From a virus: 39,064 nt of DNA. The number at the start of each line of letters is the position of its first letter. Position 1 is the first letter of the stretch. The stretch is from IMG/VR virus record IMGVR_UViG_3300029951_000066. One strand, 5' to 3'. The notes below the pieces were generated by a model. That model saw nothing but the letters and a program-made list of their open reading frames with translations. It did no database searches and was not told the origin of the DNA. This document shows positions 10,446 to 34,495 of the stretch, piece after piece. The position numbers and the translations under genes are program-made.

Positions 10446-10447
10446 TC

Positions 10448-10476: not shown

Positions 10477-10505
10477 TACCGCCATCAACATTTCGGAGAG
10501 TCGCC

Positions 10506-13586: not shown

Positions 13587-13587
13587 G

Positions 13588-14201: not shown

Positions 14202-15546
14202 GTTCAAGCTCACTACTAGGCAGGCCGAAGCCCAGGAGATGCTGAACGGGCCGGCGAAGCACGTGATGCTTGCGGGTGGTTCTAGGTCCGGAAAGACGCT
14301 GCTAATTATTAGGAAGCAGGTCCAACGTCGTCTTAAGGCGCCCGGCTCACGCGGCGCTGTGCTTCGTTTTCGCTTTGGTCACGTCAAGAACTCAATCATG
14401 CTGGACACCTTTCCTAAGGTGATGTCCATATGCTTTCCGGGCGTCCCATATGACGTGAATAAGTCGCTGGGCTATGCGACGTTTCCCGGTGGCAGTGAGC
14501 TGTGGTTCGGCGGCCTCGATGACAAGCAGCGCACTGAGAAGATTCTCGGCACAGAGTTTGCCGACATCTTTTTGAATGAGTGCTCTCAGATTCCATATTC
14601 GGGGCGTGAAATGGTCATGACGCGCTTGGCGCAGAAGGTACGCGACAATGCGACGGGCAACGATCTGATCATGAAGATGTATTACGACGAGAATCCGCCC
14701 GACAAAGGGCATTGGACCTATCGCCTGTTTAAGACCAAGGTGAGTCCCGAAACGCGTGCATCGTTGAGCGAGCCCGACAACTACGCCTTCATGCAGATCA
14801 ATCCTCGCGACAACCAAGAGAATCTGTCCGCCGACTACCTGAAGACGCTGTCCGAAATGTCGCCACGGATGCGCAAGCGCTTCCTCGAAGGAGAGTTCCG
14901 CGATGCCTCGCCTAATGCACTTTTCTCCGAAGAAGTGTTTGAACGTTGGCGCAACATTGATGACGAACTGCCGGACATGTTGCGTATCGTCGTGGCAGTC
15001 GATCCGTCAGGCGCCGATGATGATGACAACGTCGACAATGACGAAATCGGAATTGTCGTGGCTGGTCTCGGAATTGATGGGAATGGGTATGTATTGGAGG
15101 ATCTGACGTGCAAGGCTGGTCCTGCTGTGTGGGGCAAGGTTGCGACGGATGCCTATAAGCGTTGGGGCGGCGATCGCATCGTCGGTGAGGTGAATTATGG
15201 CGGCGCGATGGTCAAGTTCGTGGTACGCACGGCGCTGCCGAATGTACCGTTCAGGCCGGTCACCGCGACGCGTGGCAAGGTCATCCGAGCCGAGCCGATA
15301 TCAGCCCTGGTAGACGCTGGAAAGGTCCGCTTAGCTGGCGTGTTCCAAGAGATGGAAGACGAGTTATGCGCAATGACCACGCATGGCTATACCGGCGAGA
15401 ACAGCCCGAACCGTGCCGATGCGATGATATGGGCTATGACCGATCTATTCCCCGAGCTGGCCAAGCCGGAAGCAATTAAACCAGAGCCAAAGCCGCAGTT
15501 CATTCATCGGCGCCTTGGGTCAAACACAGGCTGGATGAGATCATGA
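14194..15546 (+). CDS. Terminase large subunit
   Basis: Walker A GGSRSGKT near the N-terminus; about 450 aa; between small terminase and portal. Confidence 0.85.
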   Translation: MAEFKLTTRQAEAQEMLNGPAKHVMLAGGSRSGKTLLIIRKQVQRRLKAPGSRGAVLRFRFGHVKNSIMLDTFPKVMSICFPGVPYDVNKSLGYATFPGGSELWFGGLDDKQRTEKILGTEFADIFLNECSQIPYSGREMVMTRLAQKVRDNATGNDLIMKMYYDENPPDKGHWTYRLFKTKVSPETRASLSEPDNYAFMQINPRDNQENLSADYLKTLSEMSPRMRKRFLEGEFRDASPNALFSEEVFERWRNIDDELPDMLRIVVAVDPSGADDDDNVDNDEIGIVVAGLGIDGNGYVLEDLTCKAGPAVWGKVATDAYKRWGGDRIVGEVNYGGAMVKFVVRTALPNVPFRPVTATRGKVIRAEPISALVDAGKVRLAGVFQEMEDELCAMTTHGYTGENSPNRADAMIWAMTDLFPELAKPEAIKPEPKPQFIHRRLGSNTGWMRS

Positions 15547-17723
15547 CCGACCAAGTAACACACGGCGCCAACGAGCCAACCCAGCGCACCGAAGAGGATC
15601 GCGAGTTTGCTGCGATCTCTGACGAAGAAATATGGCTCGAAGCAAAAGACCGCCTGCAGATCGCGGCTGAAGCTTATTCCGATAACCGCAAACGCGCTAA
15701 GGCTGCGATGCTGTTCCGTGACGGCGATCAGTGGGACCACGATACGGGCACGAGCGCTTCCGAGGATTCGCCTGAGCTGACCATCAACCTCACCGATGCA
15801 TTCGTGCGCCGCGTGGTGAACAACATCAAGCAGCAGCGTCCGCGCGGCAAGTGCCATCCGGTAGGCGATGGCGCCGATGTCGAGCTCGCCGAAATCATCA
15901 ACGGCATCGGTCGGCATGTTGAAACGCGTTCCGAAGCGTCGATCGCCTACGATCTGGCCGCCGAGCGTGCTGTAGATGCAGGCGAGGGCTACTTCCGGCT
16001 AGTCGCTGAGTATGTCGACCCGCGCTCGTTCCAGAAGGATCTACGCATCCTGCCGATCCGCAATATTTTCAGTGTGCACATGGACCCGAGCGCCATGATG
16101 CCTAGCGGCGCTGACCAGAACTGGTGCTTGATATCAGTCAAGATGAAGCGGCAGGAGTACCGCCGTCGCTACCCGAACGCGAAGAATGTGCAGTGGAACG
16201 ATATCGACCGCCAGCAGAGCCGCATCGACTGGGAAGACAAAGAGGAAATCCGGCTCGCCGAGTATTTCCGCATCCGTGAGAAGCCAGAGAAGCTCTATCA
16301 GATCGTCGACAAGACTGGCCAAGAGCATATGGTCTACCAGTCGGAGTTGAAGCGGATAACAGGCTCAGTGGCCTCGCTGAAAGATGCTGTCGATAGCTTA
16401 ACGCAGGCAGGCATTCGAATTGTCAACGAGCGTGACTCGGTAAAGCGCCAGGTGGAATGGTTCAGGCTCAATGGCCTGGTCGTAGTCGAGCGCCAGGAGT
16501 TGCCCGGAAGCATGATTCCGGTGTTTCGTGTCGATGGCAACACGATGGATGTGGACGGTGCGATCCGACGCAAGGGCATGGTCGATTCGATGATGGACCC
16601 TCAGCGCATGGTCAACTATGGCGAAGTGGCTAAGATCAAGCGTCTAGGGCTCGCGCCTAAAGCGCCGTGGGTCGCAGCAGAAGGGCAGCTTGACGGCCAC
16701 CCTGAGTGGGATAATGCAAACCAAAAGTCATACTCGGTACTGACATACAAGCCGATCGTCATCGAGACCGGCAGTCTGCCGATCATGATCCCAGCGCCAG
16801 CACGTCAGCCACCGGCACAAATCGAGGCGGGTTTCAGCGAGTTCGTGCAGGGTATGAGGTCTAACTTGGTCGCTGTGGCTGGCATGCCGAACGAGCCCGG
16901 ACAGGATCAGCAGGGTGTCGTTGTATCTGGCCGCGCCATAGACCGTCGTCAGTGGCTCTCAGATCAGTCGCACTTCCAGTATTACGACAACCTGACGCAG
17001 GCCATCGCCCAGTGCTGGCGCGTTATGGTCGAATGGATTCCGACTTACTACTCAGAACCAGGTCGCATGCAGCGCGTGATCGGCGAGGACTCGACGCCGC
17101 AGATGGTCAAGGTCAACGACAAAGAGACCGACGATGGCGGTATCGAGCGCGTCAAGAATGACCTCTCTATCGGCAAGTACGATGTCGTGATGGACACCGG
17201 TCCAGGCTATGAGACGAAACGCGAAGAGGGTGCATCGAATCTGGTCGAGATGATCAAGATCCCGCCGCTAGCAGAGATTATCGCCAAGACTGCCCCGGAT
17301 TTGGTATTCCGTTCGATAGACCATCCGTACATGCAGGAGTTGGCCGACCGGCTGATGGCCTCGAATCCCGAGGGCTTGAAGAAGATCATGGAGGGCCTAT
17401 CGAGCCGCGCCAAGAGCATCGTTCAGGCGCAGGCCAACCAGATCACGACGCTCCAGCAGCAGCTCCAGGCGGTGACAACGGAGATCAAGCAGGGATTGCA
17501 GAAGGCGCATATGGCGGCTGTCGTCAAAGCGCACGACACCGAGACACGTGCCGCTACGTCGCTGCAAGTCGAAGAAATCCGCGCCGGCGGCAAGATCATC
17601 GACTCAAACGCCGACCGTGGCCACGATGCGCGGATGCTCGAAAAACAGCTTTTGCATGATGCATCACAATCTGCGGCCGACCGAGCCGTTCAACCTCAGC
17701 AGCCCACCGGAGAGCAGCAATGA
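15543..17723 (+). CDS. Portal protein (large, about 726 aa)
   Basis: Size and position directly after the large terminase, ATGA-coupled; function inferred from synteny. Confidence 0.7.
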   Translation: MTDQVTHGANEPTQRTEEDREFAAISDEEIWLEAKDRLQIAAEAYSDNRKRAKAAMLFRDGDQWDHDTGTSASEDSPELTINLTDAFVRRVVNNIKQQRPRGKCHPVGDGADVELAEIINGIGRHVETRSEASIAYDLAAERAVDAGEGYFRLVAEYVDPRSFQKDLRILPIRNIFSVHMDPSAMMPSGADQNWCLISVKMKRQEYRRRYPNAKNVQWNDIDRQQSRIDWEDKEEIRLAEYFRIREKPEKLYQIVDKTGQEHMVYQSELKRITGSVASLKDAVDSLTQAGIRIVNERDSVKRQVEWFRLNGLVVVERQELPGSMIPVFRVDGNTMDVDGAIRRKGMVDSMMDPQRMVNYGEVAKIKRLGLAPKAPWVAAEGQLDGHPEWDNANQKSYSVLTYKPIVIETGSLPIMIPAPARQPPAQIEAGFSEFVQGMRSNLVAVAGMPNEPGQDQQGVVVSGRAIDRRQWLSDQSHFQYYDNLTQAIAQCWRVMVEWIPTYYSEPGRMQRVIGEDSTPQMVKVNDKETDDGGIERVKNDLSIGKYDVVMDTGPGYETKREEGASNLVEMIKIPPLAEIIAKTAPDLVFRSIDHPYMQELADRLMASNPEGLKKIMEGLSSRAKSIVQAQANQITTLQQQLQAVTTEIKQGLQKAHMAAVVKAHDTETRAATSLQVEEIRAGGKIIDSNADRGHDARMLEKQLLHDASQSAADRAVQPQQPTGEQQ

Positions 17724-20955: not shown

Positions 20956-20961
20956 GGATGA

Positions 20962-21300
20962 ATGGGTATGGCGACGATGCCGAATCTGGTTGGCCTGAAC
21001 TATCGAGCGGCTACCGTGGCGCTGATCGAGGCCAATATCGTTCCGAACGATGGCTCTGTGCCGAACGCTCAGACTTCTGCGCCGACAGTTGGATATTTCT
21101 CCCCTTGGCCGGTGGCCATCGTGTGGCAACCCGGAGCGCCGGTAGACGTCGTAACAGCGCAATCGCCAGCAGCAGGGCAACCGGTCACAGTGACCAACAC
21201 GACTCCGGTGAGCGAAGCCTACACGCCGCCAATAACGCTTACGGTCAATGCGCCGAAGATGGCCGTGTCCAGCCAGTTCACCGCGGGAGCTTTTTCATGA
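20962..21300 (+). CDS. Hypothetical virion-associated protein (112 aa)
   Basis: ORF whose stop overlaps the next ATG (ATGA). Confidence 0.5.
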   Translation: MGMATMPNLVGLNYRAATVALIEANIVPNDGSVPNAQTSAPTVGYFSPWPVAIVWQPGAPVDVVTAQSPAAGQPVTVTNTTPVSEAYTPPITLTVNAPKMAVSSQFTAGAFS

Positions 21301-22289
21301 CCATTGGAACCACTACGGCAGAGAGCCTCATCAAAGGGGCGCTGCGTCGCATCAATTCGTATCAGTCTGGCGAGCAGCTCGCGGAGTTCGACGCTGCGGA
21401 TTGTTTGGACACGCTGAACGATTTGCTCGACTCGCTCAGCCTGGATAAAGACCATATATTTGGCTCGCAGGAAAACATTCTTTCGTGGACGGCGCAGCAG
21501 CGCCTGTACAAGATAGGCAATCCGGTATGCACCCTGCTCGGACTGCAGCCTTTTACCGGGACTCTAACGGCAGGCTCACCGGTCATAGCCGGAATTACCA
21601 ACCTGCCGCCGCAGCTTGTCTCCGGACAGAATCCGGCTTTTCAGGTTGGCTCCGGCTCGATCCTGTCAGATGCGCAGGGACTGATTCCGGTCAATGCCAC
21701 AGTGCTGTCGGTAACGCCGACGACCATAACGATGTCTGCGCCGGCGATCGGAAACTCTGCCGGCCTGGATAGCATCACCTTCACAGTCCCCGGTGACTTG
21801 CCGATTCCGCGCCCGCTGCGCATCACGCACGGATTCACACGCTTCAATGCGCTCGATTTCACGCTTGACGTCTACGCTACGGAAACACAGTACACGCAAT
21901 TCCTATACAAGGCCCAGCCTGGGCCGTGGCCTACCGTGGCATGGTACAACAATACGTTCCCGTATGGCCTTCTGAATGTCTACCAGACCCCGGGTAACAG
22001 CACAGAGTGCCATCTGTTCACGGATACGATCCTACAAAATCTTACGTTGCAGCAAGTCCTTGTCATGCCTCAGGGCTACAGCCGAATGCTCAAGTGGCTG
22101 CTCGCGAAAGAAATCTGTGCGGAGTATGGCTTCCCGCTTACTCCGGCCATCACGTTGAATGCGAAGGAGGCGCGAGAGTTTGTAAAAGCGCTCAATGCGA
22201 AGCCGGCGAACGTGTCGAACTATGACCGTGAGCTGTCGCGAGGGAACAGGCCCGATGGCGGATGGGTGACTCATGGAGGTTACCGATAA
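21297..22289 (+). CDS. Putative head-tail adaptor or tail tube protein (330 aa)
   Basis: ORF with GGGAG RBS; position in structural module. Confidence 0.5.
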   Translation: MTIGTTTAESLIKGALRRINSYQSGEQLAEFDAADCLDTLNDLLDSLSLDKDHIFGSQENILSWTAQQRLYKIGNPVCTLLGLQPFTGTLTAGSPVIAGITNLPPQLVSGQNPAFQVGSGSILSDAQGLIPVNATVLSVTPTTITMSAPAIGNSAGLDSITFTVPGDLPIPRPLRITHGFTRFNALDFTLDVYATETQYTQFLYKAQPGPWPTVAWYNNTFPYGLLNVYQTPGNSTECHLFTDTILQNLTLQQVLVMPQGYSRMLKWLLAKEICAEYGFPLTPAITLNAKEAREFVKALNAKPANVSNYDRELSRGNRPDGGWVTHGGYR

Positions 22290-23929
22290 TGCCAGGCGGT
22301 AATAACGGACCTCTGAACCTGTTCGGTGATTTTGGCCTGGCTGGCGGTCAGGACAATGCGCCTAACCATCTGCAAGACGATCAGATGTGCATCAACATGT
22401 ACGCCGAGGTCGATCCGGGCAACTCCAAAGAGGTGCTTGGTCTGCTGGGTTGCCCAGGCCTAAACCAACTTGTCGCCGCACCTGTCGCCGGGGCCGGTGC
22501 GCCCGGATTCACTTCGACAATGACCGTGTGGCCCATGCCGTACTCCGGCCCTTCGCTGGAGGTGCGCGGGCTGTGGGAGCTTCCGGCCAATAACGACACG
22601 GTGCCGAACGGGACGGGTAGCACGGTCGATACGACAGCCCTAGCGGTCATTGGAAACACTTGCTATCTCGTCACTGCGACAATGACGGCGCCCACCGTGT
22701 TTCCCACCTTGTCTCTGACTTCGGTCGGTACGCTCCAAACCAGCACCGGCCCCGTGCACATCCGCGACAACAATACGGGCGGCGGCAACGCCGTGATCGT
22801 AGATGGCCCGAACGGTTATCTCTATGACATAGCGACGCAGGCCTTCACTCAGATCAACGATCCGAGTTTTCTAGGCTCAGATACGGTTGCCTATATCGAC
22901 GGTTGGTGGATCTTCAACAAGCCGGGCACACAGACGTTCTATTCGAACTCGCAGCCGTATAGCCTGACGTTCAATGCGCTGTTCTTCGCACTCAAGGATG
23001 CCGCGGCTGACAACCTCGTGGCCGTGATCGAGAACAAAGAGCTGCTGTGGTTGATAGGCGATAAGACGACAGAGATTTGGTACAACGCTGGCGGCGCGCC
23101 AGGTGGTGTAGGCGCGACCTTTGCCTTTCAGCGCATTGTCGGCACCCTTTTGCAGGTCGGTTGCAAGGCTAAACACTCGGTGGCTCGCTATGGGTCCCAG
23201 GGTCAGGAAGGGTTGATCTGGTTCGGGCGGTCGGAGCGCGGCGAGAATGTGATCGTGCGGACGCAAGGCTTTCTCGATCAGGTCATATCTACGCCTTCTT
23301 TCGGTGCGGAGGTGGCCACATACGCGACCACCGACGACGCAATCGGATACACCTATCAGGAAGACACGCATGAATTCTATGTGCTGATATTCCCGACCGC
23401 AGACACGTGCTGGTGCTATGACGGGCAATCAGGGCTGCTGCACAAGCGCCTTTCGTACGATCCGTATGCAAAGGAGTTCCATCGCCACCGTTCGAACGCA
23501 TTCATGAACTTCCAGGGTATGCGCGTCGTTGGCGACTATCAAAACGGGGCTCTGTACCAACTTACGAGAGCCGCCTATACCGATGCTGGCTGGCCACTGC
23601 TGGCAAAGCGACGCGCACCACATATTTGGGACGGCGGGCAACGCGGACGTGTTTTCATGCAAAGCCTACAACTCGATTTTAACGTTGGGGTCGGCAACCC
23701 AAGCGGCATGGGTACGAATCCGCGCTGCGGACTCTCGATCTCTCGCGATGGCGGCAGGACATTCGGCGATCGTATGTATGCGCCGATGGGTGCAATAGGT
23801 GAGTATCGCACACGCACGATGTGGCGCAAGCTAGGCTGGGGCCGGGATAATGTGGTCGATCTGGAAGTGATCGATCCAGTGAATCGCGACCTTGTTGGTG
23901 CAACGATGAAAGCATTCAGTTCAGCATGA
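22289..23929 (+). CDS. Putative tail structural protein (546 aa)
   Basis: ORF with GGAGG RBS at the internal ATG (MPGGNNGP); large beta-rich protein in the tail region. Confidence 0.55.
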   Translation: MPGGNNGPLNLFGDFGLAGGQDNAPNHLQDDQMCINMYAEVDPGNSKEVLGLLGCPGLNQLVAAPVAGAGAPGFTSTMTVWPMPYSGPSLEVRGLWELPANNDTVPNGTGSTVDTTALAVIGNTCYLVTATMTAPTVFPTLSLTSVGTLQTSTGPVHIRDNNTGGGNAVIVDGPNGYLYDIATQAFTQINDPSFLGSDTVAYIDGWWIFNKPGTQTFYSNSQPYSLTFNALFFALKDAAADNLVAVIENKELLWLIGDKTTEIWYNAGGAPGGVGATFAFQRIVGTLLQVGCKAKHSVARYGSQGQEGLIWFGRSERGENVIVRTQGFLDQVISTPSFGAEVATYATTDDAIGYTYQEDTHEFYVLIFPTADTCWCYDGQSGLLHKRLSYDPYAKEFHRHRSNAFMNFQGMRVVGDYQNGALYQLTRAAYTDAGWPLLAKRRAPHIWDGGQRGRVFMQSLQLDFNVGVGNPSGMGTNPRCGLSISRDGGRTFGDRMYAPMGAIGEYRTRTMWRKLGWGRDNVVDLEVIDPVNRDLVGATMKAFSSA

Positions 23930-24729
23930 GCGGTCTGCCTACTCTCATTCCTCCGCAAAGCGTCCCTATCTCGGTCGACGGCCAGGGTGCACCTGCATTT
24001 TTGAACATCAACTGGTATCTGTTCCTCTATAACCTAGGTGTACAGGTGCTGGGGACTGGATCCGGGGGCGGCGGCACTACACCTGTTTCTCCGTTCGACG
24101 CACTGGATGCGGCCAACTTATTCGCGCAAGGTGCGGATGTCCCGCAGGCATACCGAGGACTGGAAAATCTGGCCACGCTTATCGCTGGTGGCGCTCTTGT
24201 AGACCCCTCGCCACGTGCTCAGCCAGCACAGAATATCACTGTCGGTGCATCTCCGTTCACCTATACCGCGCTTCATGACGGAACCCTGTCCGTGAGCAAT
24301 GGCGTCGCGTCATCGATCGTAATTATCCGACAGGGAATTGTTGTTCCTACCGGAATAACGCTTTCCAGCGCAGGTGTTATCGGCGCTCTGACTGATGAGA
24401 AGGGGTCTGGTGGCCTGCCTGGTTTTGTGGCTGGCACCGATTTCACTCCCGGCACGACTACCGCTCTCACTCTTTCCCAGGCCTATGGCAGCGCATCCAA
24501 TCTCTGGATAGCCTTTGATGCGGCTGAGCAGGGGCCAAATACTTATTCATTGAGCGGCACCACGCTGACGTTTAACGCGCCGATTCCAGTCGGAACCGCG
24601 AATGTATTCGTGAAAGGTGCCGTTCCCTCGACGCTCAGTTCGCTTGGTGGGCTAATTCCATTGCGGCGCTTGGATCAAGTTCGTATCACGTATACCGGAT
24701 TGCCTCTCGTCGTATTTCTGCCGGACTAG
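23926..24729 (+). CDS. Tail fiber-like protein (267 aa) sharing an N-terminal anchor module with the tailspike
   Basis: Segment SNLWIAFDAAEQGPNTYSLSGTTLTFNAPIPVGTANVFVKGA is homologous to tailspike residues around 32150-32340. Confidence 0.6.
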   Translation: MSGLPTLIPPQSVPISVDGQGAPAFLNINWYLFLYNLGVQVLGTGSGGGGTTPVSPFDALDAANLFAQGADVPQAYRGLENLATLIAGGALVDPSPRAQPAQNITVGASPFTYTALHDGTLSVSNGVASSIVIIRQGIVVPTGITLSSAGVIGALTDEKGSGGLPGFVAGTDFTPGTTTALTLSQAYGSASNLWIAFDAAEQGPNTYSLSGTTLTFNAPIPVGTANVFVKGAVPSTLSSLGGLIPLRRLDQVRITYTGLPLVVFLPD

Positions 24730-25079: not shown

Positions 25080-25658
25080 ATGCGGAACTTTCAAAAAATA
25101 TTCGAAGGTGTTACGGTCGCGCCGCTTCTAAATGCGCTGTACCGAAAACCCGAACTATGGAAAGCCGATGACTTCCTTAGAAAGTTTCCACAAGGCCCGT
25201 TTGGCGAGACAGATACGATCTATCTTCGGTTCCAAGACAAATTGCAGGTTATTGATGATTCGGAAGTTAAGGCTTACGAAGAAAATCGCCTAGCAGGCCA
25301 TGACCTCCACGAATGTCCGTGGCGACCAGAAATGAATGAGTTGCCGGAGGCGCGGACACATATCAGCGCTCTAATGAGCGGTATGGGAGCAACTCGGCTA
25401 GGGCGCTGCATGATTAACCGCATCGCTCCAGGCGGGCATATTTTTCCTCATGCAGATACGAAATGGCACGCGGACTATTGGGACCGCTATCACCTAGTTC
25501 TGCAGTCGGAGCCGGGTAACGTTTTCCGATGTGGCAACGAGCAAGTGCACATGCGGCCTGGCGAACTATGGTGGTTCGAAAATGCTATTGAGCATGAGGT
25601 CACGAATAACAGCGCAAATGACCGCATTCACATGATCATCGATCTGAGGTTTTCGTGA
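25080..25658 (+). CDS. Aspartyl/asparaginyl beta-hydroxylase-family 2OG-Fe(II) oxygenase (cupin fold)
   Basis: C-terminal DRYHLVLQSEPGNVFRCGNEQVHMRPGELWWFENAIEHEVTNNSANDRIHMIIDL aligns by eye with the ASPH catalytic core (R.HL.L...G...RC.NE...G...F...EHEV...S..R...D); HxD-like PHAD upstream. Confidence 0.75.
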   Translation: MRNFQKIFEGVTVAPLLNALYRKPELWKADDFLRKFPQGPFGETDTIYLRFQDKLQVIDDSEVKAYEENRLAGHDLHECPWRPEMNELPEARTHISALMSGMGATRLGRCMINRIAPGGHIFPHADTKWHADYWDRYHLVLQSEPGNVFRCGNEQVHMRPGELWWFENAIEHEVTNNSANDRIHMIIDLRFS

Positions 25659-26122
25659 TCACCTTTTCCATCGAGCGGTTCTCCGACGTGTACGGCGAGA
25701 TGAAGCCGTTGCTAGAGGAGCACTATGTGGAAATTTCCACCCACGTGGCGCATGGCGTTCCGCTAAAGCCTAGAACGCAGGTATACGAGGATCGCCAAGC
25801 TGATGGTTCATTGATGATTGTGGTTGGTCGCGAAGCCGGTGATATCGTCTCGTACTTCTTTTGCTTTATCGCTTCCGCGCTCCACTATGAAACCTGCCTG
25901 ACCTGCTCGCCAGACATTTTCTATGTGAAGCCAGATCGACGCAAGGGTCGCTTGGGCATCCGGATGTTTCGATTCGTCGAGGATGAACTTAGACGCCGCG
26001 GCGTAGTGCGGTGGGCGGTGGGTAGCAAGATAGATCACGATGCATCTGCGCTATTCAAGTATCTGGGCTTTGAACCCGTCGAGACCACGCATGAGAAGTG
26101 GTTAGGAGAAAAATCATGGTAG
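25655..26122 (+). CDS. GNAT-family N-acetyltransferase (GTG start)
   Basis: Motif RRKGRLGIRMFRFVEDELRRRGV...ALFKYLGFEPVE (GNAT motif A-like); GTGA overlap with the hydroxylase gene. Confidence 0.7.
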   Translation: MITFSIERFSDVYGEMKPLLEEHYVEISTHVAHGVPLKPRTQVYEDRQADGSLMIVVGREAGDIVSYFFCFIASALHYETCLTCSPDIFYVKPDRRKGRLGIRMFRFVEDELRRRGVVRWAVGSKIDHDASALFKYLGFEPVETTHEKWLGEKSW

Positions 26123-26907
26123 GTGCTGCAATCGCAGTTGGGGCCGCTACGGTTGGCAGCGCTGCTATATCTGCAAGTGGCGCTGAGTCTGCTGCTAATA
26201 CGCAGGCTGGCGCAGATAGCGCTGCCTCTGCTCAGCAGATGGCGATGTTCAATACCATCAACGGGCAGGAACAGCCGTTCATGTCGGCTGGGGTCAGCGC
26301 AACTAATTCACTGTCGCAATTGCTTGGACTGACGCCCGGTGGCTCTGGCAATGGTTACTTGTCGCAAGCTGGGCCAGCGCCGTTTTCATTCAATCCATCG
26401 AGCATCACAAGTTCGCCCGGGTATCAATTTTCTCAAAGCCAGGGATTGCAGCAGACGCAGAACGCAATAGCGCCGAACGTTGGGGCGCTGTCTGGACCTG
26501 CCCTGCAAGCTTTGACCAACTATGCAACTGGTAACGCCGAGCAGTATTACAACAATTATTACAATCAAGCGTTGGGCGCATACACGACGAACTTTAATAC
26601 TCAGCAGACTGCGCAGAATAATATTTTCTCACGCCTTTCCGGCATCGCTGGCTTGGGACAGAATGCGGCGAGCAATGTTGGGACGGCAGGGACGCAACTG
26701 GGAACCGGTGCAGCTCAGGCGACTGCAGCAGGCGGCGCGGCACAGGCGGCCGGTACCGTGGGTGCGGCAAATGCCGCTGGAGCCGGAATAAGTGGCGCGG
26801 GTAACGCTTTTGCTTTGAATAGCATATTGAGCGCTAACCAGGGAGGGAGTGCCATTCAGGGGAGTGCCACTCCTGCCGGCCTAACTGCTGAAGACGCTGG
26901 ATTCTAA
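26116..26907 (+). CDS. Gly/Ala/Gln-rich putative internal virion protein
   Basis: ORF from ATG at 26116 with AGGAG RBS; low-complexity sequence typical of podovirus core or ejection proteins. Confidence 0.55.
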   Translation: MVGAAIAVGAATVGSAAISASGAESAANTQAGADSAASAQQMAMFNTINGQEQPFMSAGVSATNSLSQLLGLTPGGSGNGYLSQAGPAPFSFNPSSITSSPGYQFSQSQGLQQTQNAIAPNVGALSGPALQALTNYATGNAEQYYNNYYNQALGAYTTNFNTQQTAQNNIFSRLSGIAGLGQNAASNVGTAGTQLGTGAAQATAAGGAAQAAGTVGAANAAGAGISGAGNAFALNSILSANQGGSAIQGSATPAGLTAEDAGF

Positions 26908-26916
26908 GGAGAAATC

Positions 26917-28413
26917 ATGCCCGACTTCGGCTCCCCAGTCGCTACCGGTATAACACCGCCGAACCCTAACCAGCTTACACAATCGTTGTCCGGGATCTTG
27001 AGTCTCAAGAATCAGCAGCAACAGTTGCAGGTCGGGCAAGCGCAAGCGCAGCAGGCTCAGCAGCAGATGCAGGAGCGGCAGCTATTGCAGCAAACGTTAG
27101 CAAGTGGCACGGCGCCAGATGGAACCTCAGTAAAAGACTCTAGCGGCCAGATTGATCCGGTTGCGATGTCGAAATTTGCCAATACATCGCTGCCTCTGAC
27201 GGGGCAAGGTGTGCTGCAGTCGATCATCCAAACGCAGGATAATCACATCAAACTGAATGACTCAATCCGCGGACTGAGCCAGAACGTGAACAATGATCTA
27301 TCCGGAATCATTCGCTCAGGCGTCGGCTCGCCCGATCCTGTGGCGACGGTTGGGCCGGCTCTGGATGCGTATGCGCAGCAGAATCCAACTGCTGCTAGTG
27401 CGGTCTCACGCGTCAAAGCACTATCGCAAAACCTCAATCCGCAGATGCCTATGGATCAGCGGAATATGGCAATCCAGCGTCTGGCTCAGCAATTCCAGCC
27501 TGCGGCTACTACGGTGGCGGAACAAACACCGGGCATACGTACTACAACCGGCCCAGGCGGCGGCGTCCAGGCAGTACAGACTAATCCGCTTTCCGCTGTC
27601 CCAATGGGCGCGGTCGGACCAGAAACGGCGCAGGGCATCCCGCTGGGTGAGCGTTCGCAAGTCGGCACCAATGCACTGACCGGTGGCCCCACTGTGGTCA
27701 ACAAGAATGGACAGGGGCAAGTTACCGGGATCACGAATGCGCCGACGCAGAACGTCTACGTCCCGCAACCCGGAGACGCACAAGCGATTCCCGGACTCTC
27801 TGCCGAGCGCGAGGCGGCGCGCAATGCATACACAAGCGCTCCTTCTGCTCACACCAACAATCAACTGGTCCTGCAGAATATCGATAACGTTGCGGCAACC
27901 GGCGCTGTCGGCCAGAAGGCACGCGCCGCCCTCAACGTCTTTGGGCTTGGCCAAGATACCGATGCGGCAACTGCATATGACTTGGTGGGTAAGGGCTTGG
28001 AGCGCTCCGCATTGCAGGCAGCACAGTCGATGGGGCCGAATACAAATGCTGGTCTAGACGCGCAGATCAAGGCTAACGGTTCGCTTGGCTATACGCCCGC
28101 TGCTATCAAAGAAGTGACGAAGCTGAACGATGCTCTTACGACTGGCGTACAGGCGTATCAGCCTGGCCTAGAACGCGCCATCGCTGCGAATCCGTCTGCT
28201 GGCGTTATCGCCAAGCGCCAGTTCGACCAGCAATGGGGCGCGAACTTCGACCCGAACATCTTCAAGTACTACAACGCGATCAAGGCTGGTGACACTGGCG
28301 AGCAGCAGGCTATCGTTAAGCAGTTGGGCGGCCTGAACTCAAAAGGCTACAACGACATGATGCAGAAGGCTCAGAACCTCCAGAAACTGTCTAATACTGG
28401 CGGTTCTCAGTAA
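26917..28413 (+). CDS. Gln-rich putative internal virion protein (498 aa)
   Basis: ORF with AAGGAGA RBS. Confidence 0.55.
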   Translation: MPDFGSPVATGITPPNPNQLTQSLSGILSLKNQQQQLQVGQAQAQQAQQQMQERQLLQQTLASGTAPDGTSVKDSSGQIDPVAMSKFANTSLPLTGQGVLQSIIQTQDNHIKLNDSIRGLSQNVNNDLSGIIRSGVGSPDPVATVGPALDAYAQQNPTAASAVSRVKALSQNLNPQMPMDQRNMAIQRLAQQFQPAATTVAEQTPGIRTTTGPGGGVQAVQTNPLSAVPMGAVGPETAQGIPLGERSQVGTNALTGGPTVVNKNGQGQVTGITNAPTQNVYVPQPGDAQAIPGLSAEREAARNAYTSAPSAHTNNQLVLQNIDNVAATGAVGQKARAALNVFGLGQDTDAATAYDLVGKGLERSALQAAQSMGPNTNAGLDAQIKANGSLGYTPAAIKEVTKLNDALTTGVQAYQPGLERAIAANPSAGVIAKRQFDQQWGANFDPNIFKYYNAIKAGDTGEQQAIVKQLGGLNSKGYNDMMQKAQNLQKLSNTGGSQ

Positions 28414-31046
28414 TGGACGATCTGCTCGCCACGATCCAAAGCGGAAACCCGAGCGCGTCGCCGGCCGGACCAGCGCCGGCTGCGTCGTCGGCTAGTGGCG
28501 CATTCAGTCCCTCCCAGAGCTATGGCACGCCAGCAAAGCTGCTCGACAATCTCGCGTGCGAGGAAAGCAGCGGCGACCAGTATGCTATTAACCCGAAAAC
28601 CCAGGCCATGGGTCCGTACCAATTCACCCCATCCACTGTAGCCATGCTGCAAAAGCAGGGCGTCAAGTTCAACCCATTCGACCCGCAAGAAGCGCGTAAT
28701 GCTGCCGACTACTATTTGCAGCAACTCAAAGGGCAGAACGGCGGCAGCTATGAAGGCGCTTTGAAGGCCTATGGCGGGTTCAAGACCGCCGACCCTACAC
28801 AGTATGTCGCGAAGGCGATGAGCGGTGTAACGGGCCAGCAAAGCGCGCCGGCACCGACGATTCCAGGGCAGTCGAACTCCGGTGCTCAGCCACAGAGCGA
28901 CTCGGGTCCAATGTCGGATCTATTCTCGACGCTCCAGCAGGGTCCATCGCAACCTTCGAAGGTTGCGCAACCTGCCGCGCCCGCACCTGATAAGCAGCCT
29001 CCGGCGCAAGGCGGATTTCTCGCTGGCCTAGGCCGGTCGACGGCTGGACTCGCAGATACAGTGCTAGGCGCTCCTGGCGCTGCTGCTGGCGCCGCTGACT
29101 ACGCTGTTCGTCGTGCATTTGGACAGAATCCCCAGCAAGCGCAGCAGAGCTCCGCAGGCGACTTCGGCGGATCAGTCCATCCTGTCGGCAACGCTTTCGG
29201 CGTGACCAACACGCCCGAGTACCAGAATGAAGCATCACAGCAAGCTACGCAGGCCGTAGGCAATGTGGTCGGGAAAGGCGTTAATGCAGTGGCCAGTGCA
29301 ACCGGTCTACCGCCGCAAGACGTTTCCAATATGGTGGGGTCTGCATCGATGTTGGTCCCCGGTGCGGCTCACCTCGCTGCTCCGCTAGCGAAAGGCGTGG
29401 CGAACGAAATCGGCTACGCCGCTTCTGCTGCTGGCCAAGGCATAAAGGCTGCGGCTGGCGCTGTCGGAGATGCAGCGTCTGATGCCGCGAAAGCAGTTGG
29501 GCAGACAGCGGGCGACCTCAAGAACGCGACCAGCGTGGCGACTGGGATCAAGACGCCTCAACAAGTCGCTACCGAGCAAGCTGCTGGGCAAGCATCTATA
29601 CCTGTTGTAGGCGCTGGTGCTGCAGGCCGTCCGAGTATGGGCGCGGCGGGAACCTCGTTCGCGCAGCAGGCTGCGGCCGAGGGCGTTCCCGATGCGCTTG
29701 TCGGGAAAATTGCCGCGGCGGAAAAGAGTGGCACCTTGAACCCCGTCTCAGCAGGCCGGCACATCGAGGCCGGTTCTTTGCCAGTTCCGATCGATCTGAC
29801 TGCCGGACAAGCGAGTAGCGACGTGCGTTTACTCTCCGACGAATTGAATGCTCGAGGAAAGAACCCTGAACTGGCGAACCGCTTCAATATGCAGAATGGC
29901 CAGATCGCTGACAACCTCAGTGCGATCCGGGATCAAGTCTCGCCAAACGTAAATGTTCCCTCTGGCGCGCCGACGGGACAAGCGCTTGTTGATGCATACA
30001 AGCAGATGGACGCGCCGATCACGCAGCAGATTTCTGATCTGTATTCCAAGGCACGCGGCGCCGACGGCACACCCGCTTTGGTCAACGCTGCGCCGCAGAT
30101 GAAAGATTTCGCTTCGCAGATCGGTCCCACACGGTTCAATGCGCTGCCATCTAACGTTCAACAGATCTTCCGCGACGCAAGCGCCAATCAGGTATCTCTC
30201 CCGGCTGGCTTCGAGCAGAACGGTTCGTCAGTGCGTCCGATGAATGTCGGCGACTTGATGGATATCGATAAAACGCTCTCGGGAGCCATGCGCGGCGCCA
30301 CGGATGGTTCAGTTCGGCACGACATCGGCGCACTGCGCGATAGCGTCGTGAATTCTCAGCTTGACCCTTCGGCGGCGGGATCGGACGCCTTCGCAGCGTA
30401 CAAGACCGCGCAGGCGAGTGCGCGAGCGCGTTTCCAAGCGATGGACTCGGACCCAGCCTACAAAGCCGCAGTGAACGATATAGCGCCCGCGGGAGAGCCT
30501 TCTGCGCTGGCCGATGACTTCGTGCGCAAGTACGTGGCTGGCGGGAAGACTTCAAACGTACAGAACATGATGCAGAACCTGTCGAATGATCCGGTCAATT
30601 CGGAGCTCGTCGCTTCCGGGTTGATGGACCATATCAGGAGCCAGGCCGGTGTCGACCTACGCACTGGGTCGGGGAATATCAGTCAAGCGGGCCTGAATAA
30701 ATCCCTTCAAAACTTGGGCGATAAGACGCGCATTGTGCTCGGTCCAGAGGCATCGCAGACGGTCGAGAAACTCGGCAATGTTGCGCGCTACACGCAGGAG
30801 CAACCGCGAGGCAGCTATGTCAATAACAGCAACACATTTGTTGCGTCGGTCGCAAACGCTGCCAAGTCATCGGCAGAGGGTGCGGCTAACGTTGCGGCTC
30901 ATGGGATTCCCGTTGGAACATGGACCCGGCAGGCACTCGCAAGGCGTGCTGATGCAAAATCCGTGGCCAGCTCGCTTGAGCCGGGTGCCGGACTTAAGTC
31001 GGTTCCGCTCAATCAATTACTCAATAAAACAAAGGGGAATCCTTAA
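28413..31046 (+). CDS. Internal virion protein with N-terminal lytic transglycosylase (SLT) domain
   Basis: Motif CEESSGDQYAINPKTQAMGPYQFTPST (E-S catalytic, AxGxxQF); 877 aa; TAATG overlap with the upstream gene. Confidence 0.75.
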   Translation: MDDLLATIQSGNPSASPAGPAPAASSASGAFSPSQSYGTPAKLLDNLACEESSGDQYAINPKTQAMGPYQFTPSTVAMLQKQGVKFNPFDPQEARNAADYYLQQLKGQNGGSYEGALKAYGGFKTADPTQYVAKAMSGVTGQQSAPAPTIPGQSNSGAQPQSDSGPMSDLFSTLQQGPSQPSKVAQPAAPAPDKQPPAQGGFLAGLGRSTAGLADTVLGAPGAAAGAADYAVRRAFGQNPQQAQQSSAGDFGGSVHPVGNAFGVTNTPEYQNEASQQATQAVGNVVGKGVNAVASATGLPPQDVSNMVGSASMLVPGAAHLAAPLAKGVANEIGYAASAAGQGIKAAAGAVGDAASDAAKAVGQTAGDLKNATSVATGIKTPQQVATEQAAGQASIPVVGAGAAGRPSMGAAGTSFAQQAAAEGVPDALVGKIAAAEKSGTLNPVSAGRHIEAGSLPVPIDLTAGQASSDVRLLSDELNARGKNPELANRFNMQNGQIADNLSAIRDQVSPNVNVPSGAPTGQALVDAYKQMDAPITQQISDLYSKARGADGTPALVNAAPQMKDFASQIGPTRFNALPSNVQQIFRDASANQVSLPAGFEQNGSSVRPMNVGDLMDIDKTLSGAMRGATDGSVRHDIGALRDSVVNSQLDPSAAGSDAFAAYKTAQASARARFQAMDSDPAYKAAVNDIAPAGEPSALADDFVRKYVAGGKTSNVQNMMQNLSNDPVNSELVASGLMDHIRSQAGVDLRTGSGNISQAGLNKSLQNLGDKTRIVLGPEASQTVEKLGNVARYTQEQPRGSYVNNSNTFVASVANAAKSSAEGAANVAAHGIPVGTWTRQALARRADAKSVASSLEPGAGLKSVPLNQLLNKTKGNP

Positions 31047-31054: not shown

Positions 31055-31567
31055 CTATGCCTTTGTAAAGCGGCCCGTTCTTTCGTCTCTTCCGCCGCGC
31101 TTATTAGCGAGTTGCTCTTTTCTGGTCGCCCAACGGAAATTATTCGGCGCGTATGGCCCATCATTATCGACGCGATCAATTTCGAGATTCCCGGGCCTTT
31201 CTCCGACGTCAGCGAGAAAATATGGGAAATTCAGCCATCTATCACAGACGACTATTCCCCTGCCACCATAGCAATGGAAGGCTGGATTTTCCGGATTGTT
31301 GCAGCGATCTATCATTGCTCGCCATACCCAATAAAGAGGCGTATTAGATTTTCCGCTCCGAATATACTTCCTTCCTGTCGGAGTAACACATCCGCAAGAT
31401 ATGAGCACGCTTTGCCGGAAACCACTGATGATTTTTTCGTTTCCACAAGAGCATTTACAGAGCCACTGCGTCGACTTCCCATCCCCCGATCCCCTAGGAA
31501 TTCTTCGAATAGCGGTCAGTTCGCCATGAACTTCGCCCGGTTGGATCCGTGTATTTTTATTCGGCAT
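31055..31567 (-). CDS. HNH-type homing endonuclease-like protein, antisense within the virion operon
   Basis: AGGAG RBS; Cys-rich CKCSCGN...CGC plus motif WVWRAMIDRCNNPENPAFHCYGGRGIVVCDRW common in phage HNH/AP2-type proteins. Confidence 0.6.
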   Translation of the reverse strand: MPNKNTRIQPGEVHGELTAIRRIPRGSGDGKSTQWLCKCSCGNEKIISGFRQSVLISCGCVTPTGRKYIRSGKSNTPLYWVWRAMIDRCNNPENPAFHCYGGRGIVVCDRWLNFPYFLADVGERPGNLEIDRVDNDGPYAPNNFRWATRKEQLANKRGGRDERTGRFTKA

Positions 31568-31607: not shown

Positions 31608-33881
31608 ATGGGAACGTCTGTCGTTCAGGCACCTGACGCAATATTGCAATTTTTCAATAATGCGGGGCTACCAAATGTCGGTGGAAGTCTGCTAACCCAG
31701 GTTGGCGGCGTCAACTATCCAACATTCGAGGATGCTGCTGGTAGCACTCCGCTGCCTAATCCGATCCCTTTGAACTCCCGTGGCGAGATTTCCAATTCGT
31801 CCGGTGTATCGAGTCAGCTTTTCCTTTTCGATGCGGTCGTTTATACCTTCACGCTATTCGATGCACACGGAAATCAAATTTGGGTTGCCGAAAATGTCAC
31901 AAGCGGCGGGGCAGAAACAGGCAGCATGACCGACGAAGGCCCATTCCTGGCCGGACCAACATTTACCGGTTCCATCACTGGAACTGCATTGACTATCAGC
32001 GGAGTGACCGGATCGGTTGCCATTGGTCAGACGTTGTTCGGCGCTGGTGTAACCGCAGGAACGACGATCACGGGGGGGGCCGGTACCTCATGGACCGTCA
32101 GCACACCGCAAACCGTCGCCTCTGAGCCAATGTCCTCGGCAGGCACAGATCAGTTTGCGCCTGGATTCAGCACGGTCCTGACCCTGGTCGGTTTCTATGG
32201 CAGCAAGTCGAATCTATGGATCCAGTTCGATGCTGCCTCGCAGGGAGAGGATACGTTTGGCCTCAATAATTTCACGTTGACCTTCAATGCTCCTATCCCC
32301 ATTGGTGTTCAAGCTATCTACATAAAAGGAGGCACTACAGTCAGTATTGGTGCACCCGGAACAGGGACAGTTACAGATTCCACCGTAGCCGCCAATGCAG
32401 GGATCGAGGCATCCAAGCTTTCCTATACTGCGCCCTACACTGGCGCCGTCGCTGAAACTGTCCAGGCACGGCTTTCAAATTCGGTCTCGGTAAAGGATTT
32501 CGGGGCAACCGGCAATGGTACAACTGACGATACGACAGCATTCCAGAGCGCCATCAACTCGGGCGCCACTCGGATCAGCGTGCCGGCTGGCACCTATCTG
32601 ATTACCAAGACGCTCAACTTCACGAATCGTGGGAGCGTGCCTTTAGTCATAAGTGGCGACGGGGGATACTTAGAACAAAATACGGGGACAACGCTTCTAT
32701 TCCAGACGGGCACATGGATGGCCGATATGACTGGCTGTCAATTCCTACATCTAGAGCATATGCGCTGGTTTTCCAATGGCGCCGCGACTGGTTTTTCGAC
32801 GCTAGGCTGTCTGTACGCGAGGTCAACTGTAGTCGGCTTCGCCATATTCAACTCGATGTTCAAGATGATCATTGAGTTGCCGTCAAGCTCAGGAAGTAGC
32901 GCGGGGTCTATCGCGCTAGCAGACAACTGCATGGAAAATTGTCTGTTCGATATGTGCTGGTTTCTTTCCGACACTCCTTATGCTTCCACATTGGCGAATG
33001 AGTTAAGTTTCGTGTCAACGTACGCGACAGTCGCTAACACTACGTTCAGCAATACCGACAAAACGTTTAGGCAATGTATTTTCTTGGCTAGGAACGGAAC
33101 GGGCTGCTTCTTACAGGGAGTGGCCGATACCACATTTGATCAGTGCAATTGGTCTCTAAATGGCGCTCTAGGCGGCGCCATAGCCGCAGCCATGACGATT
33201 TTGTCATCGGCGGATGGTTACCAGAACTGCTCAAACATACGATTCACTGGGGATTTTGAATCATTCCCAGCAATCGCAGCACTTACCGGAAATACAGAAG
33301 GCCTCGTATTCGACTGCACCTCGGCGGGCCTGACAGGTTCGGCATATATCCTAAACACATCGGGCACCACTCACGATGGCATGAAGGTAAAGGTTAATAC
33401 GCTGTCCGGAGCGCAATTGAAGATGATCCTCACTAGCTCCGGATCATCGATAGTGAACAATGCCGAAGTCCATATGAATAATGGGCAGACACTACTAGAT
33501 GGGGCACTCACGATCAATGGCGGGACGATTTACGGCGGAGCAAATGATCTTTCCAATTCTGGCGTTCTGTCGATCGCTCCAGCATCAAGTTTTATCGCAA
33601 CTTACGAGAACTCAAAGCTGACTGGGAGCGTGTCTTGGGCGCCAGGTTCTGTGCCCGGCAATAGTACCGTTCTGTTTCCCGGAACAGTTACAGTGCCTGG
33701 CGCGGTAGGAGGGTCTTCCGTAGCAGTAAAGGTGCCATATGCGATACCATTTTGTATCGCTAGTGGCTTCGTAACGACCAGCAATCAGGTTGAGCTTATG
33801 CTTTCCAATGTCAACGGCGCTGCATCCGCAGCTTTCGGTACTGGCACTTGGATAGTGGAAGTGAAGAAGGTCTACGCTTGA
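31608..33881 (+). CDS. Tailspike with pectate-lyase-fold (right-handed beta-helix) depolymerase-like domain
   Basis: Motif VKDFGATGNGTTDDTTAFQSAINSGATRISVPAGTYLI typical of Pectate_lyase_3/GH28-type tailspikes; N-terminal module shared with the 23926 protein. Confidence 0.8.
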   Translation: MGTSVVQAPDAILQFFNNAGLPNVGGSLLTQVGGVNYPTFEDAAGSTPLPNPIPLNSRGEISNSSGVSSQLFLFDAVVYTFTLFDAHGNQIWVAENVTSGGAETGSMTDEGPFLAGPTFTGSITGTALTISGVTGSVAIGQTLFGAGVTAGTTITGGAGTSWTVSTPQTVASEPMSSAGTDQFAPGFSTVLTLVGFYGSKSNLWIQFDAASQGEDTFGLNNFTLTFNAPIPIGVQAIYIKGGTTVSIGAPGTGTVTDSTVAANAGIEASKLSYTAPYTGAVAETVQARLSNSVSVKDFGATGNGTTDDTTAFQSAINSGATRISVPAGTYLITKTLNFTNRGSVPLVISGDGGYLEQNTGTTLLFQTGTWMADMTGCQFLHLEHMRWFSNGAATGFSTLGCLYARSTVVGFAIFNSMFKMIIELPSSSGSSAGSIALADNCMENCLFDMCWFLSDTPYASTLANELSFVSTYATVANTTFSNTDKTFRQCIFLARNGTGCFLQGVADTTFDQCNWSLNGALGGAIAAAMTILSSADGYQNCSNIRFTGDFESFPAIAALTGNTEGLVFDCTSAGLTGSAYILNTSGTTHDGMKVKVNTLSGAQLKMILTSSGSSIVNNAEVHMNNGQTLLDGALTINGGTIYGGANDLSNSGVLSIAPASSFIATYENSKLTGSVSWAPGSVPGNSTVLFPGTVTVPGAVGGSSVAVKVPYAIPFCIASGFVTTSNQVELMLSNVNGAASAAFGTGTWIVEVKKVYA

Positions 33882-33883
33882 GG

Positions 33884-34495
33884 ATGAAAATGAAACGACT
33901 ATTTATCTCACTGTTCAGTGCAGCATCGATCTGTGCACATGCTGCCACAAATCTCCCGATCCAACTGATAAGCCCGGTTGGTTCGACAAGTGGACAGGCA
34001 ATAGTTTCAACCGGAGCTTCGAGCGCGCCGGCTTGGACTGCGGTAGTTGGCGCATCATCTCCGACAATCACGACTCCGAATATTATCGGTGTAACTAATA
34101 CATCAAATGCGGCAGCTGGAAGCGTAGGAGAGGTCATAACAGCACAGAGTGGGGCAGTTTCTCTCTCGACATCGACATCGACAAATATCATAAGCATTCC
34201 GCTAACTCCTGGCGATTGGGATGTTCGCGGGAATGTTGAGTATGATCCGGCTGGCACGACGATTTTTGTGCAGTCTGTATCTGGAATTTCTGTTACTTCC
34301 GCCACTCTTCCAAGTTCACCATTGAAGGCCGTGAGTAATTACCCAAGCATAGCTGGCAATCAGCAGTCTTCTTTTTTGCCAATTACCCGCGTCAACATTT
34401 CTTCTCCAACTACAGTTTTTGTAGTTGGATTTGCAGGGTTTACGGTTAGCACTTTGACTGCAACAGCATACATTGCTGCTCGACGTATTCGCTAA
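33884..34495 (+). CDS. Secreted Ser/Thr-rich protein with N-terminal signal peptide
   Basis: N-terminus MKMKRLFISLFSAASICAHAATN (K-rich n-region, hydrophobic core, AHA cleavage-like site); lower GC than the genome average. Confidence 0.55.
   Translation: MKMKRLFISLFSAASICAHAATNLPIQLISPVGSTSGQAIVSTGASSAPAWTAVVGASSPTITTPNIIGVTNTSNAAAGSVGEVITAQSGAVSLSTSTSTNIISIPLTPGDWDVRGNVEYDPAGTTIFVQSVSGISVTSATLPSSPLKAVSNYPSIAGNQQSSFLPITRVNISSPTTVFVVGFAGFTVSTLTATAYIAARRIR

Follow-up and report, generated by a model that had tools for sequence, protein, structure and literature searches.

A beta-jellyroll domain present in both the tailspike and a hub-proximal protein of an uncultured P22-like podophage

The virus record IMGVR_UViG_3300029951_000066 is a podophage genome of 39,064 nucleotides (nt) with a guanine-cytosine (GC) content of 0.560 and a P22-like morphogenesis block; this whole stretch of DNA is referred to below as the window. 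Here we analyzed its tailspike gene, which encodes 757 amino acids (aa), together with the gene for a 267-aa tail protein, p267, and arrived at a reading that we consider probable. The tailspike would be a mosaic of five parts—an N-terminal domain (tspN), a beta-jellyroll interrupted by a mini-domain, a neck, a beta-helix and a C-terminal beta-sandwich—and p267 would be a hub-proximal protein in which an N-terminal tip and two helices precede a beta 'knob' that holds the same jellyroll (hereafter, the module) as an insertion. The two module copies would serve as docking surfaces within the tail-tip complex, and not as the primary anchor of either protein. The initial annotation of this DNA had described two receptor-binding proteins (RBPs) sharing one N-terminal virion-attachment module; its observation is confirmed in part, and its interpretation is likewise partly supported.

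The jellyroll shared by the two tail proteins

The homology between the tailspike and p267 is real. BLASTP aligned tailspike residues 94-241 with p267 residues 101-231 at 40% identity (E=2e-20), and a comparison of the two family profiles with hhalign returned a significant match (E=1.1e-32). The peptide pair that first pointed to this relationship had been placed correctly, at nt 32208-32333 (tailspike residues 201-242) and nt 24496-24621 (p267 residues 191-232), and the DNA of the two copies has diverged, as had also been remarked, with only one 51-nt stretch at 72.5% identity being detectable. According to the profile alignment, the shared unit is a beta-jellyroll of about 90 residues, in which tailspike residues 100-121 and 180-250 correspond to p267 residues 148-240; in the AlphaFold2 (AF2) models, the strands of both copies correspond one-to-one with a 10-residue offset.

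What had been called a shared N-terminal anchor is N-terminal in neither protein. The tailspike copy lies downstream of a separate N-terminal domain (residues 9-100) that is not present in p267. Homologues of p267 comprise about 65 full-length proteins as well as short forms of ~190 aa, and about 50 of the latter align to p267 residues 1-145 and 241-267 with nothing in between. Because these short homologues join residue 145 directly to residue 241, residues 146-240 constitute an inserted domain, the insertion site being the C-terminal beta-sandwich of the protein. The tailspike module is itself interrupted by a Gly/Thr-rich mini-domain (residues 122-179; FTGSITGTALTISGVTG...GTSWTVS..QTV), which is kept in 'type I' tailspikes and absent from those of 'type II' (e.g., P0044-46 and P0070). 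A 45%-identical copy of this mini-domain resides within a different beta-helix protein in another locus (L035, 10747-12234). The mini-domain, for which no significant PDB match and no Pfam match was found, looks like an independently mobile small domain.

These boundaries bear directly on the model offered by the initial annotation, i.e., that the shared segment is the virion anchor of two independent RBPs that compete for, or share, one tail site. The module family does overlap PF03906, the T7 gp17 domain that attaches the T7 fiber to the tail, and the module sits within the conserved, virion-side third of the tailspike, as an anchor might. However, besides the internal position of the segment in both proteins, the module is altogether absent from many p267 homologues and from many tailspikes whose tspN is 70% identical. 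Moreover, no enzymatic or receptor-binding domain was recognized in p267, which gave neither a Pfam nor a PHROG hit and which lacks tspN; the conserved N-terminal tip and the core sandwich of p267 are better anchor candidates than the inserted domain. We regard the two-anchor model as improbable: whether needle or adaptor (see below), p267 is not a second RBP sharing the tailspike anchor.

Of 121 homologues of each protein, the module HMM (hidden Markov model) matched 78 for the tailspike and 79 for p267. Its co-occurrence was examined in 116 loci fetched with p267 and tspN queries, with the N-domain alignment serving as the tspN query. The module was detected in both proteins in 11 loci as well as in Xanthomonas phage PBR31, in neither protein in 31 loci, in the tailspike-type protein only in three and in p267 only in none; the jellyroll is missing from both proteins in many related phages. 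In PBR31, the protein at the p267 position has an N-terminus that is not recognizably related and a C-terminal end that is the module, and the tailspike of this phage is also module-bearing. The two types of tailspike copy relate differently to the p267 copies: identity to them is 42-53% for copies with the mini-domain and 45-81% for copies without it, and the latter, one outlier excepted, group among those of p267. Repeated transfer of the module between the two genes is therefore probable. Protein identity of the copies was hardly higher within genomes (0.543) than between genomes (0.522). Recent gene conversion between the two copies was considered and rejected, as no extended DNA identity exists between them in the window; the module copies of PBR31 and of a further locus, L037, share only ~68% DNA identity over ~200 nt. 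L037 is a prophage of the cultured Paraburkholderia sp. HD33-4 (NZ_JAJEJS010000002.1, 1408789-1429070) that carries the whole arrangement—a module-bearing p267 homologue, a type II tailspike and a gene of the kind found downstream of the window tailspike (p201, see below). At the protein level, its module copies share 81% identity, the maximum observed within any one genome, and this prophage would be a tractable experimental system.

Mosaic architecture of the tailspike

When diverse tailspikes are aligned, the columns of the N-terminal domain, tspN, average 76% identity and 35 of them are invariant; the domain matches the N-terminal part of the tailspike of cyanophage Pan3 (PDB 9VYG, a chain of ~128 residues whose phage was identified by tblastn; E=6e-6). 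The body of the protein had been proposed to adopt a pectate-lyase fold, and it is indeed a beta-helix of the pectate-lyase superfamily, of the Sf6/HK620 tailspike type. The DFGATGNGTTDDT motif occupies residues 297-309, within a PF12708 match at residues 293-363 (39.5 bits vs a cut-off of 27, E=7e-10). The tailspike profile retrieved GH55 (1.4e-28), the Sf6 tailspike (2.7e-20) and AlgE epimerases (~1e-20) from the PDB, and Foldseek returned the tailspikes of Sf6, HK620, Pam1 and Det7 as top matches (E down to 1.7e-10). With the full tailspike model as the query, Foldseek matches were confined to the beta-helix, with no neighbor for either tspN or the module. The beta-helix is presumed to be the polysaccharide-degrading, host-specific part. 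The tailspikes of P22, Sf6, HK620, Pam1 and Pan3 are likewise built from an N-domain that binds the head, a beta-helix and a C-terminal domain; tspN is related to the Pan3 counterpart, and in fold the body comes closest to Sf6 and HK620.

That the tailspike is a chimera with a horizontally exchanged C-terminal part is supported by comparison with relatives, and not by composition. BLASTP of the 120 best tailspike homologues yielded 109 alignments starting at the N-terminus, with nested coverage: 46 ended at residues 80-125, 10 at 126-170, 8 at 256-290 and 33 at 330-390, and only two extended to the C-terminus. The closest relatives of the window (L004, L006, L007 and L008) are 57-87% identical to it in the portal, coat, hub, p267, ejection proteins and tailspike residues 1-250, and 31-54% identical in the neck, with no detectable similarity to tailspike residues 341-757. 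P0002 and P0004, by contrast with the opposite pattern of P0005 and P0019, combine a helix and C-terminal domain of 59-71% identity with an N-domain that is 33% identical or unrelated. Furthermore, the helix of P0043 (36-40% identical) is found in L033, a P22-like phage, in another place in the gene order and accompanied by neither tspN nor module, and the C-terminal sandwich travels with the beta-helix in P0001-P0004. The commonest junction falls at residues 330-390 (nt 32595-32777), just after the conserved PF12708 cap.

On these alignments, P22-like soil phages and Burkholderiaceae prophages would, as a large group, have retained the virion-side part of the protein (residue 1 to ~260-390), and the beta-helix and C-terminal domain would be exchanged as one cassette, with junctions clustering after tspN, after the module and, most often, within the conserved first helix rungs. 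As judged from sequence comparison, the view of the tailspike as a chimera with a horizontally exchanged beta-helix part holds. The pattern (a conserved N-terminus, a swapped body and nested breakpoints) is that of modular tailspike exchange in general, from which nothing essential differs; tailspike mosaicism of this sort is an ordinary, known kind of system, here in an uncultured lineage.

The boundary at ~32.7 kb suggested by the initial annotation agrees with the commonest junction (~32.6-32.8 kb), whereas the reason given for it, a drop in GC content, did not stand up to calculation. The GC content is 0.539 for codons 1-375 vs 0.503 for codons 376-757, a small and non-significant difference, and a step of that size occurs in 27% of adjacent window pairs along the genome. 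GC content at third codon positions (GC3) is 0.549 vs 0.537 on either side of codon 375 (Fisher p=0.77), and the best change point, nt 32595, was not significant upon codon shuffling (p~0.43). The small drop stems from codon positions 1-2 and, therefore, from amino-acid composition. The GC content of tspN (0.495) is as low as that of the tailspike C-terminus. The whole stretch from 31.0 to 34.6 kb, encompassing an HNH endonuclease gene, the tailspike gene and p201, is somewhat GC-poor, the GC3 of p201 (0.366) being the lowest of the region. A foreign origin deduced from GC content or codon usage was thus rejected, with whole-gene and segment GC, GC at each of the three codon positions, the adjacent-window null and the change-point test all non-significant.

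Proposed docking by the module and the placement of p267

Searched against 1.84 billion representatives, the module profile retrieved 6,396 clusters at E<=1e-3, of which 1,747 reached E<=1e-10; the family includes many tandem arrays, with up to 32 copies. Some relatives (P0238, P0240, P0245 and P0252) pass the thresholds of PF03906 (T7 tail-fiber N-terminal) and PF13799 (DUF4183) exactly at their module-like repeats. Within the PDB, the profile matched the C-terminal domain (residues 272-321) of chain 7Y22_e, a 'tail adaptor protein' assigned by tblastn to the SP6-type Klebsiella phage Kp7 (E=7.8e-7), and the same residues were matched by the profile of the whole p267 protein (E=6.7e-4). The module, a beta-jellyroll of ~60-90 residues with adjacent N- and C-terminal strands, resembles in this respect the XD2 and XD3 domains, i.e., beta-jellyrolls with adjacent termini and trimeric faces that dock other tail proteins (Chao et al., PMC8825819). 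The module probably belongs to a jellyroll superfamily that also contains XD2-XD3 of T4 gp10 and CBA120, the C-domain of SP6-type adaptors, the N-domain of T7 gp17 and DUF4183. Characterized members of this superfamily expose trimeric faces that dock another tail protein. In phage CBA120, the XD2 domain of TSP2 is needed for binding TSP4, itself XD2-bearing (Chao et al., PMC8825819), and branching domains are experimentally required to mount a second RBP in phages of the KP32/KP34 type (Latka et al., PMC13352976).

By analogy with these relatives, the two module copies of the window may dock with each other, much as TSP2 of CBA120 binds TSP4, or else with a common accessory partner. Treating the shared piece as an assembly module was right in spirit, since its relatives are protein-protein docking domains; it was the label of N-terminal virion anchor that failed. 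Several differences separate the window from CBA120 TSP2/TSP4 and from the XD2/XD3 domains of G7C gp66: the phage is a P22-like podophage, one module copy is located in a small hub-proximal protein and not in a second tailspike, the tailspike copy holds a nested mini-domain, and the similarity to XD2 is marginal, with docking suggested here by kinship. Three further leads (ΦXacm4-11, HRP29 and Kp9) had no bearing on the question.

A different role for the module is also conceivable, namely that of a generic adhesion or carbohydrate-binding beta-sandwich that aids reversible binding to the cell envelope, the two copies then reflecting a domain duplication with no interaction between them. Tandem arrays of up to 12, 24 or 32 copies in proteins of 2,000-3,400 aa have an adhesin-like appearance, DUF4183 relatives build spore appendages, and the module is dispensable. 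However, the module retains a mean column identity of 50% across phages with unrelated beta-helices, a degree of conservation more in keeping with a constant protein partner than with glycans that vary. Its nearest relatives of solved structure serve in protein docking, and no sugar-binding motif was found. We deem the adhesion role unlikely.

Several observations weigh against the preferred reading of the copies as docking surfaces. The docking role is derived from relatives only; the match to XD2 of CBA120 TSP4-N (residues 192-243) is weak, with a whole-sequence E=0.005 and a domain i-E of 0.6; and the isolated module copies of the window gave no PHROG assignment and no Pfam hit even at E<=1, including PF03906 and PF13799. 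A single central needle trimer of p267 would misfit 1:1 docking with six tailspikes. The existence of module-less tailspikes with a 70%-identical tspN implies that the module is dispensable for attachment, three loci (L028, L035 and L068) carry it in the tailspike-type protein only, and the unverified pair P0098/P0157 may show the reverse, with the module in p267 only. Additionally, the module state changes ~4 times on the tspN tree and most positives fall into one clade; given these few changes, mostly within one clade, the association of the module with both proteins is suggestive and not proof. Finally, the AF2 model of the beta-helix is of low confidence at residues 400-500.

The placement of p267 within the tail determines what its module copy could reach. 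The gene lies directly 3' of the gene for a P22 gp10-type hub and 5' of the ejection genes (phrog_598 and an SLT domain)—the position of P22 gp26, of Sf6 gp9 and of the annotated 'needle protein' of Pan3—and the order adaptor, hub, needle-position gene, ejection proteins and tailspike is shared with P22, Sf6, HK620, Pam1 and Pan3. The morphogenesis block contains no needle candidate other than p267. The AF2 model (mean predicted local distance difference test, pLDDT, of 87.6) displays helices at residues 30-42 and 56-87, followed by a beta domain at residues 102-266; the predicted order, with a conserved tip at the N-terminus, then the two helices and finally the beta 'knob', is the one known from knobbed needles, the two helices being no more than suggestive. 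Needles of the P22/Sf6/HK620/Pam1/Pan3 type consist of an N-terminal helical plug and a distal knob. Also in favor of a needle are the relationship of tspN to the N-terminal part of the Pan3 tailspike and the direct binding of tailspikes to the hub in P22-like phages. Unlike P22 gp26 and the Pan3 needle, however, p267 has no long coiled-coil shaft in its AF2 model, where only one helix of ~32 residues precedes the beta domain, and no detectable sequence homology to them: there was no PDB hit to gp26 or other needles, and hhalign against the Pan3 needle family alignment gave E=0.078 with a probability of <1%.

Other features point to a lateral adaptor. The gene at this position in PBR31 is annotated as 'tail fiber / tail spike adaptor' (an annotation only), p267 shares with SP6-type adaptors a homologue of their docking domain (7Y22_e, residues 272-321), and an adaptor would offer a 1:1 trimer-trimer stoichiometry, should module-module docking occur. 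The N-terminus of p267 is helical with no PF03906 anchor, the PF03906-related jellyroll being the internal module. No domain common to P22-type tailspikes and needles is known. On balance, we lean towards p267 being a needle-position (needle/plug) protein, and regard a lateral adaptor as a less probable, though plausible, assignment.

Comparison with the RBP systems of KP32/KP34 and SP6-type phages reveals the same architectural logic of a short, non-enzymatic tail protein accompanied by a full depolymerase tailspike. The module is homologous to an adaptor C-terminal domain (Kp7, 7Y22), and a second fiber-like gene lies directly 3' of the tailspike gene. In contrast to these systems, p267 lacks a T7 gp17-like N-terminal anchor and occupies the needle position after a PF11134 hub, the N-domain of the window tailspike spans ~90 residues instead of a ~29-residue docking peptide, and the downstream fiber-like protein bears a signal peptide.

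The downstream gene p201, genome context and implications

The fiber-like gene, p201, is listed among the open reading frames (ORFs) at 33848-34495 and was taken here as 33890-34495. A p201-like gene is found 3' of 9 of 11 module-bearing tailspike genes, including those of the deep-branching PBR31 and L035, vs 0 of 40 module-less ones. The C-terminus of p201 matches a tail-fiber family (phrog_11393; tail-fiber-tip-like), and its N-terminus is a Sec-type signal peptide (MKRLFISLFSAASICAHA|A) followed by a conserved mature N-terminal motif. All eight p201 homologues inspected possess a canonical Sec-type signal peptide followed by the motif LPVQLLNPxGSTSGQAxVSTG, and the signal peptide is kept in homologues from PBR31, a Paraburkholderia prophage and metagenomic phages. 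In L035 (a Logan SRR14194067 contig, 10001-13613), the 'tailspike' is reduced to tspN plus the module (249 aa) and is succeeded by separate beta-helix (495 aa) and p201-like (460 aa) proteins, both with signal-peptide-like N-termini. This split arrangement fits the module as a docking platform but does not account for the signal peptides. An ATP-grasp gene (PF02843) is located just upstream of the split tailspike in L035.

These data could also mean that both module copies are platforms for a third component, the p201-like protein, in a branched complex of the KP32/KP34 type. The gene association, the split tailspike of L035, the tail-fiber match and the fact that the mature N-terminus of p201-like proteins is conserved and the remainder variable all speak for such a complex. 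Yet Sec signal peptides on all p201-like proteins are hard to square with cytoplasmic virion assembly, L004 has both modules and no p201 gene, the association rests on ~3-4 independent lineages, and the presence of p201 in the virion is putative; we consider this explanation rather unlikely. A further, bolder scenario would place the shared jellyroll on the needle-position protein and the tailspike as a docking platform that recruits the Sec-exported, tail-fiber-tipped p201-like protein and, where the tailspike is split as in L035, an exported beta-helix enzyme. Some of the machinery for receptor binding would, on this view, join the particle outside the cytoplasm, either in the periplasm or once the cell has lysed; alternatively, the exported proteins would mask receptors as partners matched to the module on the virion. 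To this scenario we assign only a low probability.

The features of the window are compiled in Table 1. The gene order is the same as that annotated in Xanthomonas phage PBR31 and cyanophage Pan3. The exact p267 protein is present in 85 collection blocks (metagenome assemblies), and prophage relatives occur in genomes of Paraburkholderia, Caballeronia, Burkholderia and Ralstonia. No nucleotide match to the window was found among cultured phages. Protein matches to the tailspike in cultured or metagenomic phages cover the N-terminal third only (PBR31 and one metagenomic phage), and matches to p267 in cultured phages cover the module only (PBR31 and the Burkholderia phages KL4 and BcepC6B).

Table 1. 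Genes and domains of the window, with the evidence for each assignment.
Feature	Position (nt)	Strand	Evidence or remark
Sf6-type terminase			First in morphogenesis gene order
P22-type portal	15543-17723		Followed by scaffold and coat
330-aa protein gene	21297-22289		After coat, before hub
Hub, PF11134 (P22 gp10-type)	22262-23929		Directly 5' of p267 gene
p267, 267-aa tail protein, needle/adaptor position	23926..24729	+	ORF, homologues, AF2, synteny
p267 residues 1-145: N-terminal tip, two helices, first half of core beta-sandwich (GASPFTYTA motif)	23926..24360	+	In long and short homologues
Module copy 1 (beta-jellyroll), p267 residues 146-240	24361..24645	+	Absent from short homologues; hhalign; module-profile matches
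p267 residues 241-267: C-terminal strands closing core sandwich	24646..24726	+	adC HMM hit, long and short forms
Small genes			Between p267 gene and ejection-protein genes
Three ejection proteins	26098-31046		phrog_598 and an SLT domain
HNH endonuclease	31055..31567	-	phrog_374, E=4.5e-50
Tailspike gene, 757 aa	31608..33881	+	ORF, tailspike PHROGs, 393 homologues
tspN, head-binding-type N-domain, tailspike residues 9-100	31632..31907	+	Conservation, Pan3 match, pLDDT ~90
Module copy 2, segment 1, tailspike residues 100-121 (MTDE... motif)	31905..31970	+	hhalign to p267 residues 148-171
Nested mini-domain 'ins', ~58 aa, tailspike residues 122-179	31971..32144	+	Absent from type II tailspikes
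Module copy 2, main part, tailspike residues 180-250	32145..32357	+	BLASTP, HMM, hhalign, AF2
Linker/neck, tailspike residues 251-290	32358..32477	+	Low pLDDT at 246-270; eight homologue alignments end at 256-290
Right-handed beta-helix, pectate-lyase superfamily, residues ~291-655	32478..33572	+	PF12708, PDB profile, Foldseek
C-terminal beta-sandwich, residues ~660-757	33585..33878	+	AF2 pLDDT >90 for residues 670-750
p201, 201-aa protein	33890..34495	+	phrog_11393, E=6e-19
Holin and lysozyme genes			3' of p201

The HNH endonuclease gene (GC content 0.493) is an insertion that separates the tailspike gene from the last of the ejection-protein genes; the gap measures 589 nt in the window, where close relatives have 27-39 nt. 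In four otherwise different phages (L057, L088, L109 and L030), HNH homologues with 38-48% identity are found at this same site, antisense and directly 5' of the tailspike gene, which suggests that the HNH gene homes to a site adjoining the 5' end of the tailspike gene, a very conserved stretch; such homing is a possible driver of cassette exchange.

Elsewhere in the morphogenesis block, the interval 20958-22289 appears as one 443-aa ORF in the mechanical ORF list and as a 110-aa and a 330-aa gene in the gene calls on identical contigs, the 330-aa gene upstream of the hub belonging to phrog_12985, a family with no assigned function. Between the needle-position gene and the ejection genes (25080-26122) lie two genes of non-structural appearance, encoding a PF05118 Asp/Arg beta-hydroxylase-like protein of 192 aa and, at the position of a gene annotated as an acetyltransferase in PBR31, a protein of 155 aa. 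Both are missing from the closest relatives (L004 and L006-L008) and have only distant homologues (25-35%), in L005 and remoter loci, which suggests cargo inserted into the virion gene block.

Taken together, the arrangement described here represents a modified form of the known branching-domain/XD theme, carried by an uncultured lineage of P22-like phages. A probable docking jellyroll of the gp10/XD type, previously considered in Ackermannviridae, N4-like and T7/SP6-like phages, also appears in this lineage, and does so in two tail proteins at once. Conserved attachment modules with exact boundaries allow tailspike re-engineering and host-range prediction, and the present analysis supplies a residue-level domain map together with natural junctions (~100-110, 256-290 and 330-390) for a large uncultured P22-like group. 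The reading of a shared N-terminal anchor backed by GC content, plausible as it was, is wrong and would put engineering boundaries in the wrong place. The link of the module to exported fiber-like proteins is the most novel thread to emerge from this phage group.

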